Shown in pieces: positions 10,042 to 36,728 of a stretch of DNA of 36,728 nucleotides; the first letter of the stretch is position 1; each line of letters opens with the position of its first letter. The stretch comes from Chloroflexota bacterium (GTDB lineage: Bacteria > Chloroflexota > Anaerolineae > Promineifilales > Promineifilaceae). Both the position numbers and the translations under genes were made by a program. The stretch is taken from positions 1 through 36,728 of the forward strand of contig JAGVTM010000514.1 of NCBI GenBank assembly GCA_019136785.1. Direction: 5' to 3'. A model generated the notes under the pieces. It made no database searches. It saw nothing but the letters and a program-made list of their open reading frames with translations, and was not told the DNA's origin.

Positions 10042-13000
10042 TTAGATTGAGAGAACGCTGGCGCGGGCGTTTAGTTCTTCTAGCAGCACCAGGTGGTCGC
10101 CCAGGCGGTGGGTCAGGCGGAGCATCATCATGTCCACGTCGCGGAAACGGCCTAATTCTCGTTCCGCCAGAACCGCATCTACCAGGCGTGCTGACAGACG
10201 AATAGCCAGCAGGTCTTCGCGCGAGGCGGTGTTTAGATTTACTTCTGACGGGGCGGCGCTGGGATTGGTGAATGTGCCAGGGAAAGTTTGTTCTTGCTTT
10301 GTCAGCGTCGCCGCACCCGGCTGCAAGGTGATGATCTTGCTGCTGGCGGTGACCGTGGTGGGACGGTAGCTGGCGGGATTGGCAGCGTCATCATGAGGAT
10401 AGTGAGGCGTTATTTGCATGAACAGCAACACCGCTTTTTCATCGTCAAAGAGCGCTCTGTAGCGGGTGGCCAGCGTGTTTTCGTATGTTTTGAAGGTAGA
10501 CAGGTTGAGCGTGGGATGCATGGGGACCAGATTGCCGGCAACCCCCTGGCCAAAGAAACGGTCGCCAATCAAATGACCGCGATGATCGCCCGGCTGGTAG
10601 GCGGGCACACCGCCAGGCAAATTGCGCACAGCAGGCAGCGATTCTCGTTCCTCACCCTCTTTCACGTTGGTCACGTGGCCTGATGGGCCGGTGGCGCGTT
10701 CCAAACCATCCGCCGGATAGGTGGGGGCAATGCGGGGCACGATGCTCTCCAGCGCCATCTGCTCATGCTGCTGCGCGGTTGTGCCCGTCAACACGACCGG
10801 ATCAGAGAACTGCACCACCGTCAGGTCACGCCTGATTTTCACCGTATGGGCTCCCACAGGGCGCTCGTAAATGAATTCGCCCCCTGCGGCGGCGGGCGGC
10901 GTCTCGGCGGCTTCCCCGCCCAGCCCTAAAGCATTCAGGATGGCCTGACCCAGATTCAGGGCGCGCTCAATGAGCCAGTCAATGGCGCGATCTACTAACT
11001 GGCGCACGTCTTCGACCATCTCGCGGAGGCGGCGGCTGATGCCGCCTAGCCCGACTTGATTTGCCAGGAAGCCGATGGCAATGGGCAGCGCGCGGGCCAG
11101 GGCGCTTTCCAGAAAGCTGGCGGCCTGTTCGATGGCGCCGCGGGCAATGCCGGCAATGCCGCCCAGCACCGTGTTCACAATTTCCAGCATCTGCCGCAGG
11201 TATTGCATGAAGGATTCGATGGCGCGATAGATGGCGATCAGGCTGTTGACGACAGCCATGATGCCTGTGGGATCGAGCAGACTGAGCAGGCGAGCGCTGG
11301 CGGTGGTGATGATGGTGTTGGTGATCCAACCGATGACGCTGGTCAACACTGTTTGCCACAAATCGCTCAAGCGCTCCTGCAACTGTCGCCATAGTCCGCC
11401 AGGGCCTTCGTTAATGAGGGTGGTGATCCAGCCCCAGGCGGTTTCGGCAATCGCCAGCGCCCGGCGCAGCAGCGCCACCCGTTCAGGCCCAATGCGCGGG
11501 TTTTGCTCCATGCGCTGGAAGATGCGTTCCGTGGTGATGTCCAGAATTTGCAGCACAAACCCCAAAATGCCGCGCAGGCTGAACTCGGTAGGCGGGGTGA
11601 GCCCGGCTTCCTGCACCTGCCCAAACAGCCAGCCCATGACGCCGTCTAGCAAATGTTGACCAATGTTGCCAAAGAATTTGACGAACCCTTCTTTGACGGC
11701 GCGCAACAGATTGATGAGGAAGCCCACCGGGTCTTGCAGGATGCTGCTGAAGACGTTAAGGGCATTTTGCAGGATGTTCGTCACTAACTGCGGCGGGATA
11801 CCCATCAGTTCCAGCAAGGCGCTGAAAAATGTCCAGGCTGCGCCAAACAGATTGCCGTCCACGAAAACCTGGCGCAAGATACGCATGGCCAGGCTGCTAA
11901 TGCGCGCCCAAATGTCGGGAATTTGCAACAGTTGGCTGAAAATGGGGATGTGGCTGAGAATGTTCTCAATCAGGAAGTTCTTGATGGGGTCCAGAATACA
12001 CTCTGGAATGGCGCTCCACAAGCCGCCGGTGATCAGGTCGGGAAGCTGTCCCAACAAGTCGCCGAGAACGCTGATTAGCTGCTGCAGCAGGTTGAGGATT
12101 GGTTCGATGAAGCCAGCCAGATAAACCAGACCATCGCCCAGGAAACCAAAGAGGCTGGCGACGGTTTCTTGCGCCCACTGCCCCAGACTGGCGACACCGT
12201 CAGCAACCCATTGCAGCAGGCTGGTGAGGTGGCTGGTGAGGCTGTTCTGGCTTAAGGCGTTGACGAAGCCGGTCACCTGCTCTACGACGCTGCCAATGAC
12301 GCTGGCGACCCAACTGCCGGCATTGACAATGCTTTCACGGACAGAGGCGGCGGTGGCCAGCACTGCCGGCAAAATCTCATCCCGCAGGCTCGTTTGCTGT
12401 TCGGCTACCCCCTCAGGCTCCTGCATGGTGTTGACCATCGAGCCGGCGTTTTCCAGCCAGCCCTGAATCGTTTCGCGCAAGTTCAAGATGGCATCCAGGG
12501 GCAAGACCGCCATCACCTGGTCAATGACGCCACGAATGGGGGCGATCACCGGTTCTAAGAGCGCCAGGATGGCATCCCAGGCCTCCCCCAATTTTTGCTG
12601 CACCCAGTCCAGCAGCCCACCTTCGCTGTCTTCGGTATCCGCGCCAATGCCCAACTGCTCTTTGACCCACTCCCAGGCGCTGGCAAAGGCGTCGCGCACG
12701 GGCTGCGTCCACTCCCAGATGTCGCTGGCAATGTCCTGAATATCTTGCCAGATTTCGCCGGCTACTTCGCCGATCCAATCCACCACAGGCGCGCCAAAAT
12801 CAGCCCACAAATCGGAGAAGAATTGCCCCACCGGTTCGAAGAATTCGACGATGGCGTTCCAGGCATCCCCAGCCATTTGGGAGATGGTTTCTTGCAGCCG
12901 CCCCACGGCGGCAAACAAGGGTTCGCAGTCGCCCGCCAGCAGCGGTTCCAGGATTTCCTGCGACGCCGCCAGCAGCGCGTCAAAGGTGGCGAGAAAGCCC

Positions 13001-13872
13001 GCCAGAATGCCGCTGTCTTCCCCCACCCCACTAAACAGATTGTCTATGACGCCGCCGAGCAGGTTCTGCAGGTAATCAAAGATGCCGCCGGCAGCATGAA
13101 TATCGCGGATCAATTGCGCCAACTGCGGCGCCAGTTCTTCGATGATGCTCCAGGCGGTATCAGCCGTGAATTCGATCACGTCGCTGGCCAGCTCTGCGCC
13201 AGCCTCGATAGCTGCGCCGCCGGTGTATGACCAGGCTGTGGCCAGCGCTTCGCCGACTTCGACGCGCTGAACAGCCGGCGTTCCACCGCGCTGCTGCTGC
13301 ACTACGTGGGCGGATTCGTGGGCCATGAGGCGGGCGTCGCTGCTAGATTCACCCGCGCCCAGGAAGATGTGATTGCCGGCAGTGAAGGCGCGGGCAGAGA
13401 GCGTGGCGGCGGCGGCAGCAGCCTGGGAATCTTCGTGAACGCGCGCCTGCCCCAGGTCTGCGCCGACGCGCGGTTCCAGGCGTCCGCGCAGGTCGGGCGA
13501 CAGCGGGCGACCGGGGTGTGGCTGGCGAATGGTCGCCGCCACGTCGGGCGTGACGGGCGGCGGGGTCGCGCCGCTCCTTTTGGGGGATGGAGAAGGATTG
13601 CCGGCGACGATGTCTGCCTGCCGTTCAAAGGCGTCACCTGGTTGATTGACAGTTAGCTCAGATGCTGCCGGCAGCGGGTTCGCCGATTTAGCCATGACAG
13701 TCTGGCTGACAGCGTGATTTCCGCCTCCTTTTTGCAGCCGCTGCGATTCACTTACCGTTCGGTGTTTACGCGCGCCTATTGGCGCGCGGCGCGGCGGGGA
13801 AGCAGTCGTCTGTGTGGGCGATGCGACCGGGGAGGATTTCGTGTGGGCGAGGGTTTTTGTGGCAGCGATCAT
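10042..13872 (-). CDS. Putative CIS payload: N-terminal DUF4157 (HExxH) domain, long acidic helical middle, C-terminal His-Me-finger nuclease (Endonuclease_NS_2-like) and HhH DNA-binding motif
   Basis: DUF4157-like block: DAFERQADIVAG...PLSPDLRGRLEPRVGADLGQARVHEDSQAA...ARAFTAGNHIFLGAG...LMAHESAHVVQQQ, with HESAH at 13303-13329. C-terminal nuclease block: GDHRGHLIGDRFFGQGVAGNLVPMHPTLNLSTFKTYENTL...ITPHYP (about 10420-10600). ComEA-like HhH: VNLNTASREDLLAIRLSARLVDAVL. The start lies 10 nt after the upstream stop; an alternative start is MAKSANP. Confidence 0.75.
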   Translation of the reverse strand: MIAATKTLAHTKSSPVASPTQTTASPPRRAPIGARKHRTVSESQRLQKGGGNHAVSQTVMAKSANPLPAASELTVNQPGDAFERQADIVAGNPSPSPKRSGATPPPVTPDVAATIRQPHPGRPLSPDLRGRLEPRVGADLGQARVHEDSQAAAAAATLSARAFTAGNHIFLGAGESSSDARLMAHESAHVVQQQRGGTPAVQRVEVGEALATAWSYTGGAAIEAGAELASDVIEFTADTAWSIIEELAPQLAQLIRDIHAAGGIFDYLQNLLGGVIDNLFSGVGEDSGILAGFLATFDALLAASQEILEPLLAGDCEPLFAAVGRLQETISQMAGDAWNAIVEFFEPVGQFFSDLWADFGAPVVDWIGEVAGEIWQDIQDIASDIWEWTQPVRDAFASAWEWVKEQLGIGADTEDSEGGLLDWVQQKLGEAWDAILALLEPVIAPIRGVIDQVMAVLPLDAILNLRETIQGWLENAGSMVNTMQEPEGVAEQQTSLRDEILPAVLATAASVRESIVNAGSWVASVIGSVVEQVTGFVNALSQNSLTSHLTSLLQWVADGVASLGQWAQETVASLFGFLGDGLVYLAGFIEPILNLLQQLISVLGDLLGQLPDLITGGLWSAIPECILDPIKNFLIENILSHIPIFSQLLQIPDIWARISSLAMRILRQVFVDGNLFGAAWTFFSALLELMGIPPQLVTNILQNALNVFSSILQDPVGFLINLLRAVKEGFVKFFGNIGQHLLDGVMGWLFGQVQEAGLTPPTEFSLRGILGFVLQILDITTERIFQRMEQNPRIGPERVALLRRALAIAETAWGWITTLINEGPGGLWRQLQERLSDLWQTVLTSVIGWITNTIITTASARLLSLLDPTGIMAVVNSLIAIYRAIESFMQYLRQMLEIVNTVLGGIAGIARGAIEQAASFLESALARALPIAIGFLANQVGLGGISRRLREMVEDVRQLVDRAIDWLIERALNLGQAILNALGLGGEAAETPPAAAGGEFIYERPVGAHTVKIRRDLTVVQFSDPVVLTGTTAQQHEQMALESIVPRIAPTYPADGLERATGPSGHVTNVKEGEERESLPAVRNLPGGVPAYQPGDHRGHLIGDRFFGQGVAGNLVPMHPTLNLSTFKTYENTLATRYRALFDDEKAVLLFMQITPHYPHDDAANPASYRPTTVTASSKIITLQPGAATLTKQEQTFPGTFTNPSAAPSEVNLNTASREDLLAIRLSARLVDAVLAERELGRFRDVDMMMLRLTHRLGDHLVLLEELNARASVLSI

Positions 13873-13882
13873 GGGAAATTGG

Positions 13883-36618: not shown

Positions 36619-36649
36619 GAAACTGGGTTTTTTGAAAAAACCCAGTTTC
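36619..36649. promoter_or_regulatory. Perfect 14-bp stem / 3-nt loop hairpin 15 nt upstream of the gpD-like start
   Basis: gaaactgggttttt-tga-aaaaacccagtttc. Confidence 0.4.
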
Positions 36650-36656
36650 CAGGTGT

Positions 36657-36728
36657 TCAGGTGGTCAGCGGCGGCAGTTCCAGCACTGTGCCAGGGGTAA
36701 GCTGGCGGGGGTTGAGGATGCGGTTGTG
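36657..36728 (-). CDS. 3' end of a LysM/gpX-like gene (only the last 23 codons are in the window)
   Basis: The - strand frame reads HNRILNPRQLTPGTVLELPPLTT*, which resembles the end of a LysM motif. The gpX-gpD order is known from P2-like tails. The fragment is very short. Confidence 0.35.
   Translation of the reverse strand, partial: HNRILNPRQLTPGTVLELPPLTT

Follow-up and report, generated by a model that had tools for sequence, protein, structure and literature searches.

The window analysed here is a 36,728-nt stretch of DNA from a Chloroflexota bacterium, and we studied the locus at 10042-36728. All 16 open reading frames (ORFs) of this locus are present at the stated coordinates and co-oriented on the minus strand (Table 1). 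All families named in an initial annotation (Phage_GPD, Phage_base_V, GPW_gp25, Baseplate_J, tail protein I, DUF4157, DUF2169, DUF4150 and AAA) were matched by window ORFs in Pfam or NCBIfam. The tight coupling of the core genes was also real, with an ATGA overlap at 35443-35440, a TAATG overlap at 23152-23148 and gaps of 9-10 nt. These genes very probably encode one half of a phage-tail-like contractile injection system (CIS), the half with the spike, the baseplate, the fibres, the ATPase and the toxin. The system belongs to lineage II of the extracellular CIS (eCIS) superfamily. The machine was identified by sequence, structure prediction and synteny, and the locus is known here from its genes alone. 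The full operon would span about 46 kb, with its distal half in the window.

Table 1. Features of the locus in the window (numbers in the last column are E-values of the matches unless they are positions or lengths)
Feature	Coordinates	Strand	Basis
3' end of tube-initiator gene (CIS_tube + LysM, Afp7/Cis7-like)	36659..36728	-	cut by window end
gp27/gpD-like baseplate hub, N-terminal half of split VgrG/Afp8	35440..36603	-	Phage_GPD 3.1e-9
gp5/gpV-like OB-fold spike, C-terminal half of split VgrG	34934..35443	-	Phage_base_V 1e-27
DUF2169-fold protein, 461 aa	33520..34905	-	DUF2169 2.4e-12; inserted CBM-like beta-sandwich at about residues 85-225
Stand-alone DUF4150 (Tox-PAAR-like) protein, 134 aa	33106..33510	-	Tox-PAAR-like 8.4e-27, profile positions 2-107 of 108
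gp25-like sheath initiator / baseplate wedge (Afp9)	32427..32813	-	GPW_gp25 2.9e-29
Baseplate J / gp6-like wedge (Afp11/Cis11), single copy	29952..32291	-	Baseplate_J 9.3e-20; TIGR02243 7.5e-99
gpI/gp7-like wedge (Afp12/Cis12) with N-terminal NHL beta-propeller	27929..29974	-	NHL 4.8e-20; Tail_P2_I 2.3e-10
Cis13a, fibre-position protein	25067..27877	-	CIS13_fam 9.7e-20 at N-terminus; Collagen 3.2e-6
Cis13b, second Cis13-type protein	23150..25057	-	CIS13_fam 6.3e-6 at N-terminus; HHH_5 0.0045
GT2 glycosyltransferase	22278..23150	-	Glycos_transf_2 1.9e-26; Glyco_transf_7C 2.2e-7; start overlaps Cis13b stop (TAATG)
515-nt spacer	21763..22277	.	3 x 117-nt tandem repeats and GC-rich palindromes
Probable tape-measure protein (Afp14/Cis14 position), 525-aa ORF	20185..21762	-	CIS_TMP 7.1e-5, below gathering score
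GxxExxY / PDDEXK_3 protein	19722..20111	-	PDDEXK_3 3.1e-40; TIGR04256 (GxxExxY) 3.9e-42
233-nt spacer	19489..19721	.	3 x 71-nt tandem repeats
Afp15/Cis15-type ATPase	17257..19488	-	WHD 9.6e-35; AAA 1.3e-30
Putative second effector, 1104 aa	13883..17197	-	'QVQRQAGNQAAQQL' leader; PD-(D/E)XK-like module at about residues 836-990
DUF4157-headed nuclease toxin, 1276 aa	10042..13872	-	eCIS_core 5.1e-23; Endonuclea_NS_2 2e-11

The other half of the operon was found in relatives. Related loci are labelled L001 and so on. An exact look-up of the gpD-like protein of the window gave no record, so the window is absent from the collection that was searched. A scan of species-representative genomes found three contigs of uncultured Ardenticatenaceae (Chloroflexota), on which the gpD-like protein was 96-97% identical to that of the window (97% in L001), and L001 and L002 were collinear with the window, with DNA 83-92% identical (83-88% for L001). 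A LysM protein has its C-terminus encoded in the final 70 bases of the window, with a translation that ends ...HNRILNPRQLTPGTVLELPPLTT*. In tblastn this peptide matched the end of a CIS_tube+LysM ORF in L001, L002, L004 and L007. Sheath, tube and DUF4255 cap genes had been predicted upstream, and all of them were found in the collinear L001. Upstream of the hub, the genes there begin with a BTAD regulator and a 93-aa ORF. A Pvc16_N (DUF4255) cap and a CarboxypepD_reg protein come next, followed by a sheath with a gp19 tube, a second sheath with a second tube, and finally CIS_tube+LysM. Two Phage_sheath_1 and two Phage_T4_gp19 genes lie directly upstream in L001 and likewise in the collinear L004 and L007. 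The cap gene, which lies outside the window (Pvc16_N 7.5e-32 in L001), was also detected in L007 and L008.

The contexts of the DUF2169-like and tape-measure-candidate homologues gave a shared gene order: cap, CarboxypepD_reg, sheath, tube, sheath, tube, an ORF of about 60 amino acids (aa), CIS_tube, GPD hub, base_V spike, DUF2169-like, Tox-PAAR-like, gp25, J, NHL-gpI, Cis13a, a second Cis13-type protein, an optional GT2, the tape-measure candidate, the WHD-AAA ATPase and variable effectors. This architecture was kept even where the proteins share only about 30-65% identity with those of the window. It was found in Chloroflexota, cyanobacterial and Planctomycetota entries, and on one contig with a protein cluster named Patiriisocius (Bacteroidota). 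The small ORF between the second tube gene and CIS_tube (60-67 aa in L004 and L006-L008, outside the window) had no family match and stands in the afp6 position. Regulators of the BTAD/GerE type, DUF4157 as an eCIS core domain and DUF4157-to-toxin linkers of more than 1000 aa were described by Geller et al. (PMC8213781), and our locus fits these features because a BTAD regulator (in L001), DUF4157 and a long linker were seen. Linkage of the ATPase to DUF4157 is described there as a hallmark of eCIS. At the other end, the plus-strand ORFs scanned at 1647-9509 encode an oligopeptide-type ABC transporter, so the locus ends at the toxin.

Two further observations were made on the upstream genes, outside the window. 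A small CarboxypepD_reg protein follows the cap gene (L001 2019-2699, and likewise in L004, L007 and L008). The second sheath protein (L001 5818-7980) has a CarboxypepD_reg domain inserted in it, and this insert would decorate the sheath in a lineage-specific way.

The hub and the spike together correspond to one VgrG. They map to the N- and C-halves of VgrG_rel (profile positions 54-346 and 372-541 of 547), and the spike start overlaps the hub stop in the ATGA. The hub also matched phrog_52, a tail protein (3e-31). In the PDB it matched AlgoCIS (7aef_q, 5.5e-11), the Streptomyces coelicolor CIS-Sc (9gtr_q, 8e-8) and the Anabaena tCIS (7b5h, All3320, 1e-7).

The next two genes form a pair. A PDB sequence search with the DUF2169-like protein gave no match, and its AlphaFold model (pLDDT 90.2, pTM 0.87) matched best the DUF2169 crystal structure 8vth (4.6e-10), followed by carbohydrate-binding modules (CBM) of families CBM4/16/22. 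Short homologues of about 264-297 aa do not have the CBM-like insert. The gene lies between gpV and the PAAR-like gene in L004, L006, L007 and L008. In L094, whose locus is truncated on the upstream side, it comes before the PAAR-like gene. The DUF4150 gene adjoins the DUF2169 gene in all related loci, with orthologues of 129-161 aa. The Tox-PAAR-like profile covers the whole 134 aa of the window protein, which has no C-terminal toxin domain. No PAAR_motif match was found in the window with Pfam.

In type VI secretion systems (T6SS), DUF2169 proteins act as adaptors for DUF4150 effectors, and Agrobacterium Tde2 with its own DUF2169 adaptor is reportedly one such pair. The T6SS pairs and ours are alike in the adjacent DUF2169-fold and DUF4150 genes directly downstream of a spike gene. 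They differ in that the DUF4150 protein here is a bare 134-aa domain, that the long DUF2169 form contains the CBM-like insert, and that the locus is of the eCIS type. The DUF4150 protein is the predicted spike tip, in the place of Afp10/PAAR, and with the DUF2169-fold protein it would form a conserved spike-tip module of an eCIS-type machine. By analogy with T6SS, we propose that the DUF2169-fold protein is a chaperone or adaptor of the tip.

The three wedge genes follow. For gp25 the most likely start is at 32813, which gives a 128-aa form (MADFLGTGW) equal to the 128-aa orthologues in L004 and L005; a longer ORF, up to 32966, traverses hairpin repeats. The best PDB match of Cis11 was Cis11 of Streptomyces CIS-Sc (9gtp, 1.8e-67). 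Its most likely start is at 32291 (MPLPTPNLDD), and the resulting length of 779 aa is the same as in L004. Cis12 matched CIS12_fam (5.5e-46), TIGR02242 (7.9e-21) and, in CIS-Sc, Cis12 (9gtp_E, 1.2e-5). Its NHL+P2_I architecture is repeated in L004, L007, L008 and L090-L095.

Two proteins occupy the fibre position. Cis13a shows a weak PQQ beta-propeller signal (0.0027), 15 collagen G-X-Y triplets at residues 641-685 and a C-terminal domain without a family. Its orthologues in related loci (896-993 aa) keep the same position, and a PDB sequence search with Cis13a returned collagen-type matches only. Cis13b contains 14 tandem PTG(I/L)x pentapeptides at residues 483-552 and a C-terminal helix-hairpin-helix (HhH). 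These proteins had been described as two Cys-rich paralogous fibre-like proteins. Each has 16 Cys, in agreement with this description, and the paralogy was supported for the N-terminal 160-290 residues or so (BLASTP 1e-6), but not beyond. Neither protein has a transmembrane (TM) segment (maximum 19-residue Kyte-Doolittle mean 1.66-1.67).

Two side observations concern these genes. The C-terminal HhH of Cis13b (about residues 575-635) is conserved in L008 (18946-20547), L092 (8051-9982), L093 (7328-9118) and L094 (8628-9983), with HHH_5 at 3.6e-9 in the L008 orthologue. An HhH usually binds DNA, and one at the distal end of a fibre-position protein is unexpected. Immediately upstream of the Cis13a ribosome-binding site, at 27878-27928, about 4.5 copies of the heptanucleotide CCACTGA form a run, which may be a slippage-prone tract affecting fibre-gene expression. 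About 2.5 copies are present in L090 (4324-4369) and the run is degenerate in L002 (about 9030-9075), while L004 has an unrelated 430-nt spacer (16613-17043).

The presence of the GT2 gene was compared with the Cis13b sequence over ten loci, one of them cut. GT2 was present in all four loci with a Pro/Thr repeat tract in Cis13b (the window, L090, L008 and L093) and absent from all five without it (L091, L092, L094, L095 and L039). The fraction of Pro plus Thr over 60 residues of Cis13b was 0.43-0.55 with GT2 versus 0.20-0.35 without GT2. The repeat units of the tracts differ in sequence among the GT2-bearing loci, and loci without a tract have a PKD domain or nothing in its place. Glycos_transf_2 joined to Glyco_transf_7C is the catalytic arrangement of polypeptide GalNAc-transferases. 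Our working hypothesis is that GT2 O-glycosylates the Thr-rich tract of Cis13b, because GT2 co-occurs with the tract, the two genes overlap, and the enzyme has this domain architecture.

The 525-aa ORF, to which the initial annotation gave no name, is probably the tape-measure protein. CIS_TMP was its only Pfam family and was matched by 9 of 23 homologues. The homologues (510-547 aa) always lie between the Cis13b/GT2 genes and the ATPase. A search of the PDB with the family profile found designed alpha-repeat proteins only and was uninformative.

The ATPase, which has an N-terminal winged-helix domain (WHD), had been called a double AAA+ protein. One canonical module was found (Walker A GPSGTGKT, residue 528); the second is represented only by a degenerate P-loop (GRPGSGRR, residue 277). 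Homologues of the ATPase come from CIS loci. The pairing of this ATPase with DUF4157, which had been taken as an eCIS signature, was borne out in the window, and among the 81 loci with ATPase relatives a DUF4157 gene was detectable in the fetched flanks of 24, usually just downstream.

The last gene of the locus encodes a toxin with an eCIS_core head at residues 123-196 (HESAH), a linker of about 850 aa, Endonuclea_NS_2 at 1051-1162 and a weak C-terminal HhH (HHH_3, 0.0065). A PDB sequence search with this 1276-aa protein gave no match. At L092 15034-19062, a toxin of the same architecture (1158 aa) is followed by a SUKH/SMI1-type immunity gene, and in L039 an analogous protein joins DUF4157 to a colicin-DNase. 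No SUKH-type immunity gene was found in the window by tblastn with the L092 protein.

The 1104-aa protein next to the toxin consists of the leader, a long disordered/helical linker, a Cys-rich module, a Lys/Glu linker and hydrophobic helices at 1044-1068 and 1074-1094; its orthologue in L090 is 77% identical. It matched no Pfam or NCBIfam family, and no degenerate DUF4157 was found in its N-terminal 400 residues even at E up to 5. The module was found in 192 representative clusters. Among the 75 that were scanned, 64 carried an eCIS_core head and one matched Tox-REase-9 (6e-5). Over 32 sequences the module has invariant H26, D61 and E75-x-K77 together with conserved Cys. Its model (pLDDT 84.5) has the secondary-structure order alpha-beta-beta-beta-alpha-beta, and the top Foldseek matches were Cas4/Exo5-type nucleases, which were not significant (E 0.4-1.7). 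The module is like Tox-REase-9 and Cas4-Exo5 nucleases in its D...E-x-K and His, its N- and C-terminal Cys clusters and its secondary-structure order, but it has no Pfam match, and a charged linker and a pair of hydrophobic helices come after it. The 1104-aa protein is likely a second effector with a putative Tox-REase-9-related nuclease, because its module carries a DUF4157 head in 64 of the 75 relatives. Motifs like its N-terminal 'QVQRQAGNQAAQQL' leader also occur in the 1276-aa toxin and in DUF4157 proteins of L092.

Several side observations were made on the payload genes. A short motif, 'LQR/QR-x-x-GN-x-A', stands before DUF4157 or the linker in the 1104-aa protein (residues 52-65), in the 1276-aa toxin (residues 43-57), in L092 (13713-18510) and in P0094 and P0103, and 'LQR[KF]' is repeated at domain junctions of DUF4157-headed proteins. 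The LQR motif could act as a signal for loading, or the HExxH domain could process the proteins at this site. Directly after the ATPase, L091 (14696-21214), L093 (13818-20957) and L094 (13691-20710) encode annexin-domain proteins of 2172-2379 aa. They replace the DUF4157 nucleases in these three loci, which hints that some members of the lineage target eukaryotic membranes. In the window, the stretch after the toxin (9510-10041) contains palindromic repeats only.

The gene content was compared with published subtypes. According to Chen et al. 2019 (dbeCIS; PMC6899500), subtype IIb has afp8 in two ORFs, a single afp11, divergent afp12/afp13 and an afp6, uniquely has no afp10 (PAAR), and contains further conserved genes without known domains, while afp14 is generally absent from lineage II. 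By gene content alone, our locus fits this published description of IIb, because it has the split VgrG, a single Baseplate_J gene, Afp12/13-like genes and no canonical PAAR. Baseplate_J and Tail_P2_I are each represented by a single ORF, and the Cis13 type by two. The difference is that the 'missing PAAR' and the 'unknown' genes are given candidate identities here, namely the DUF4150 tip, the DUF2169-fold protein and the probable tape measure. The reported lack of PAAR in IIb would be accounted for because the DUF4150 tip fills the position.

The Streptomyces coelicolor CIS-Sc (9gtp/9gtr; PMC12237407), of subtype IId, shares lineage II with the window and supplies the closest solved baseplate proteins (Cis11 1.8e-67, Cis12 1.2e-5 and spike 8e-8). 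It differs in having a single-ORF VgrG, no fibre or tape-measure gene, and a cytoplasmic action that needs CisA (PMC12237407). In contrast, the split VgrG, the two Cis13-type proteins, the tape-measure candidate and the DUF4157 toxins are found in the window. Subtype IId is described with a single-ORF VgrG and with afp12/afp13 mostly absent (PMC6899500). Membership of IId or the CIS-Sc group was rejected in spite of the Cis11 similarity, as the window has a split VgrG together with Cis12 and two Cis13-type genes.

Afp/PVC (subtype Ia), AlgoCIS and the Anabaena tCIS, the latter two related to subtype Ib systems according to their authors, are like our locus in the spike, gp25, J, I, fibre, tape measure, AAA+ ATPase, cap and 3' toxins. 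Their VgrG is fused and their PAAR canonical, and they have no DUF2169, no NHL on Cis12 and no GT2. The fibres of Afp/PVC are adenovirus-like, and the cap gene is the last in Afp but the first in this lineage. The N-terminal domain of the tCIS-type Cis13 family is common to the Cis13 proteins of the window. The tCIS Cis13 has a C-terminal TM helix, which is absent from Cis13a and Cis13b, and a tCIS-like anchoring through Cis13 was rejected. The gene content had been called non-canonical. This holds relative to Afp/PVC, but not for the lineage to which the locus belongs, where most such genes are conserved parts.

These comparisons lead to a proposed mechanism. The hub, the spike and the DUF4150 tip would nucleate a sixfold wedge ring of gp25, J and I, and the DUF2169-fold protein would serve the tip as a chaperone or adaptor, as its T6SS relatives do for DUF4150 proteins. 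Cis13a and Cis13b would attach to the baseplate through their common N-terminal domain and expose their variable distal domains for target recognition, namely the beta-propeller and collagen-like stalk of Cis13a and the Thr-rich tract and HhH of Cis13b, with the tract glycosylated by GT2. The tape-measure protein would set the tube length, and the products of the upstream sheath, tube and cap genes would complete the particle. The ATPase may help to load cargo that bears the N-terminal leader/DUF4157 region. Contact with a target would then trigger sheath contraction and deliver two DNA-degrading effectors, one with Endonuclea_NS_2 and the other with the Tox-REase-9-like PD-(D/E)XK module.

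The identity of the machine does not depend on its mode of action. For an eCIS-type particle, we favour action outside the cell with moderate confidence, judging from the genes. The strongest alternative, which we still consider unlikely, is an intracellular or membrane-docked CIS for regulated cell death, modelled on the Streptomyces CIS-Sc with CisA or on the thylakoid-anchored tCIS of Anabaena. The 1104-aa protein would then be a membrane adaptor or a membrane-parked toxin instead of injected cargo. In this reading its long disordered N-terminal part would be cytoplasmic, and a hydrophobic hairpin ends the protein. This hairpin is the main support for the intracellular mode. The hydrophobic C-terminal helices are kept in the L090 orthologue, comparable C-termini occur in several DUF4157-headed homologues, and CisA, which is encoded in the cis cluster, likewise has a largely disordered N-terminal region and a TM segment (PMC12237407). 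There are also no lysis genes in the locus and no immunity gene for the nuclease, and the Cis11 similarity to the cytoplasmic CIS-Sc speaks for this mode too. The relatives of the window were assigned to Ardenticatenaceae, which are filamentous and multicellular like Streptomyces. However, the locus encodes a tape-measure candidate and two proteins in the fibre position whose distal domains vary. CIS-Sc has neither, and the Cis13 proteins here have no TM helix, unlike the Cis13 of tCIS. In the 1104-aa protein the conserved module is of a toxin type that is normally joined to a DUF4157 head, and not a CisA-like periplasmic domain. Genes typical of inter-cellular toxins are found in the sister loci, namely for a colicin-type DNase, SUKH immunity or giant annexin-domain proteins.

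Some findings weigh against the reading of an eCIS of subtype IIb that injects two nucleases into other cells. The production of particles, their release and their action outside the cell are read from genes only, and the locus has no lysis genes. The closest solved baseplate component comes from CIS-Sc, which fires inside the cell. No immunity gene adjoins the toxin, whereas one follows its counterpart in L092. A cargo with two hydrophobic helices would be awkward to load into the tube lumen, and the nuclease fold of its module has no significant structural match (E at least 0.4). The tape-measure match lies below the threshold. The link between GT2 and its substrate is correlative, and it comes from about three independent lineages. 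The IIb assignment follows only the gene content given in the text of a paper.

Other types of machine fit the locus much less well. A defective prophage tail or an R-type tailocin, that is, a bactericidal particle without protein cargo, is very improbable. The structural genes all have phage-tail homologues, and the PHROGs search of the window matched tail and baseplate categories only. As the initial annotation stated, there is no capsid, portal, terminase, integrase or lysis gene among the window ORFs (Pfam, NCBIfam and PHROGs), and no phage head, packaging, integration or lysis gene was found in the window or in the 9.6 kb upstream in L001. A prophage tail was rejected on these grounds together with the Afp15-type WHD-AAA+ ATPase, the DUF4255 cap and the DUF4157-headed toxins. 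The BTAD regulator and an architecture kept across phyla in non-phage contexts also argue against it and against a tailocin. DUF2169 and Tox-PAAR-like domains are best known from T6SS loci, and the pair lies next to a VgrG-like spike, with weak matches to VgrG and TssE models. Even so, a T6SS variant is the least probable of all and was rejected, since none of TssA, TssB/C, TssF/G, TssK, TssJLM and ClpV was found (TssB/C sheath, TssK, TssJLM and ClpV were looked for among the window ORFs and in the upstream halves of L001 and L004), the sheaths of the relatives are of the Phage_sheath_1 type, the DUF4150 protein has no toxin domain, and a cap, a probable tape-measure protein, an Afp15-type ATPase and DUF4157 are present.

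Several features of the locus are local additions. The GxxExxY gene lies between the tape-measure candidate and the ATPase in the window and in the close relative L090, and it is absent at this junction in L091-L095. It is probably a local insertion and not part of the machine. The 515-nt spacer between GT2 and the tape-measure candidate is 20 nt long in L090, and the 233-nt spacer between the GxxExxY gene and the ATPase is 66 nt long there. One hairpin family of the 515-nt spacer is shared with 32844-32931 (D7 and D16), and a 130-aa ORF within it (21889-22281) is a by-product of the repeats and not a gene. The spacer repeats are strain-specific expansions. The initial annotation had proposed that spacers laden with repetitive extragenic palindromes (REP) split the locus into modules. 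The repeats were confirmed, but they are heterogeneous between spacers and absent or much shorter in close relatives, and the idea that REP elements define functional modules was rejected. Outside the locus, two related GC-rich palindrome clusters at 6604-6850 and 9570-9998 (e.g. AGGGCGAGGGGCGC..GCGCCCCTCGCCCT) flank a fused ABC permease gene (6603-9509). Because the 968-aa permease ORF starts inside the first palindrome cluster, the gene probably has a later true start. No Rfam family or tRNA was detected in the window, and a promoter and terminator scan of it was uninformative.

In conclusion, the genes place the locus in a catalogued eCIS family, and its odd genes appear to be mostly conserved parts of that family. 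We know of no structural or functional study of lineage-II eCIS other than the Streptomyces IId type. The identities of the tip pair, the covariation of GT2 with the Thr tract and the DUF4157-linked nuclease module may be new, although our literature search was limited and an earlier description is possible. With low confidence, we suggest that three features are undescribed for any studied CIS: a T6SS-style tip module, a GT2-glycosylated fibre protein and a membrane-anchoring, Cys-rich PD-(D/E)XK cargo family. If this is true, a DUF2169 adaptor with a CBM-like insert and a DUF4150 cap would explain the 'PAAR-less' IIb, and the tip module may add a route of tip loading or tip recognition beside lumen loading. 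The fibre would be the first glycosylated one in a CIS, modified by a dedicated GT2, and the membrane-anchoring nuclease cargo family would be one that is almost always DUF4157-led.

The locus and its relatives provide a complete conserved parts list for the apparent subtype IIb. They offer candidate identities for genes that were listed as subtype-specific without known domains, namely the DUF4150 tip, its DUF2169-fold partner, the probable tape measure, the NHL-bearing Cis12 and the two Cis13 paralogues. Three testable hypotheses follow, on tip chaperoning by DUF2169, on fibre glycosylation by GT2 and on a new DUF4157-linked nuclease cargo family. As eCIS are engineered for protein delivery, new fibre, tip and cargo-loading modules would be of practical value. 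For the organisms themselves, the locus points to the use of DNase-loaded injection particles by filamentous Chloroflexota in the environment.

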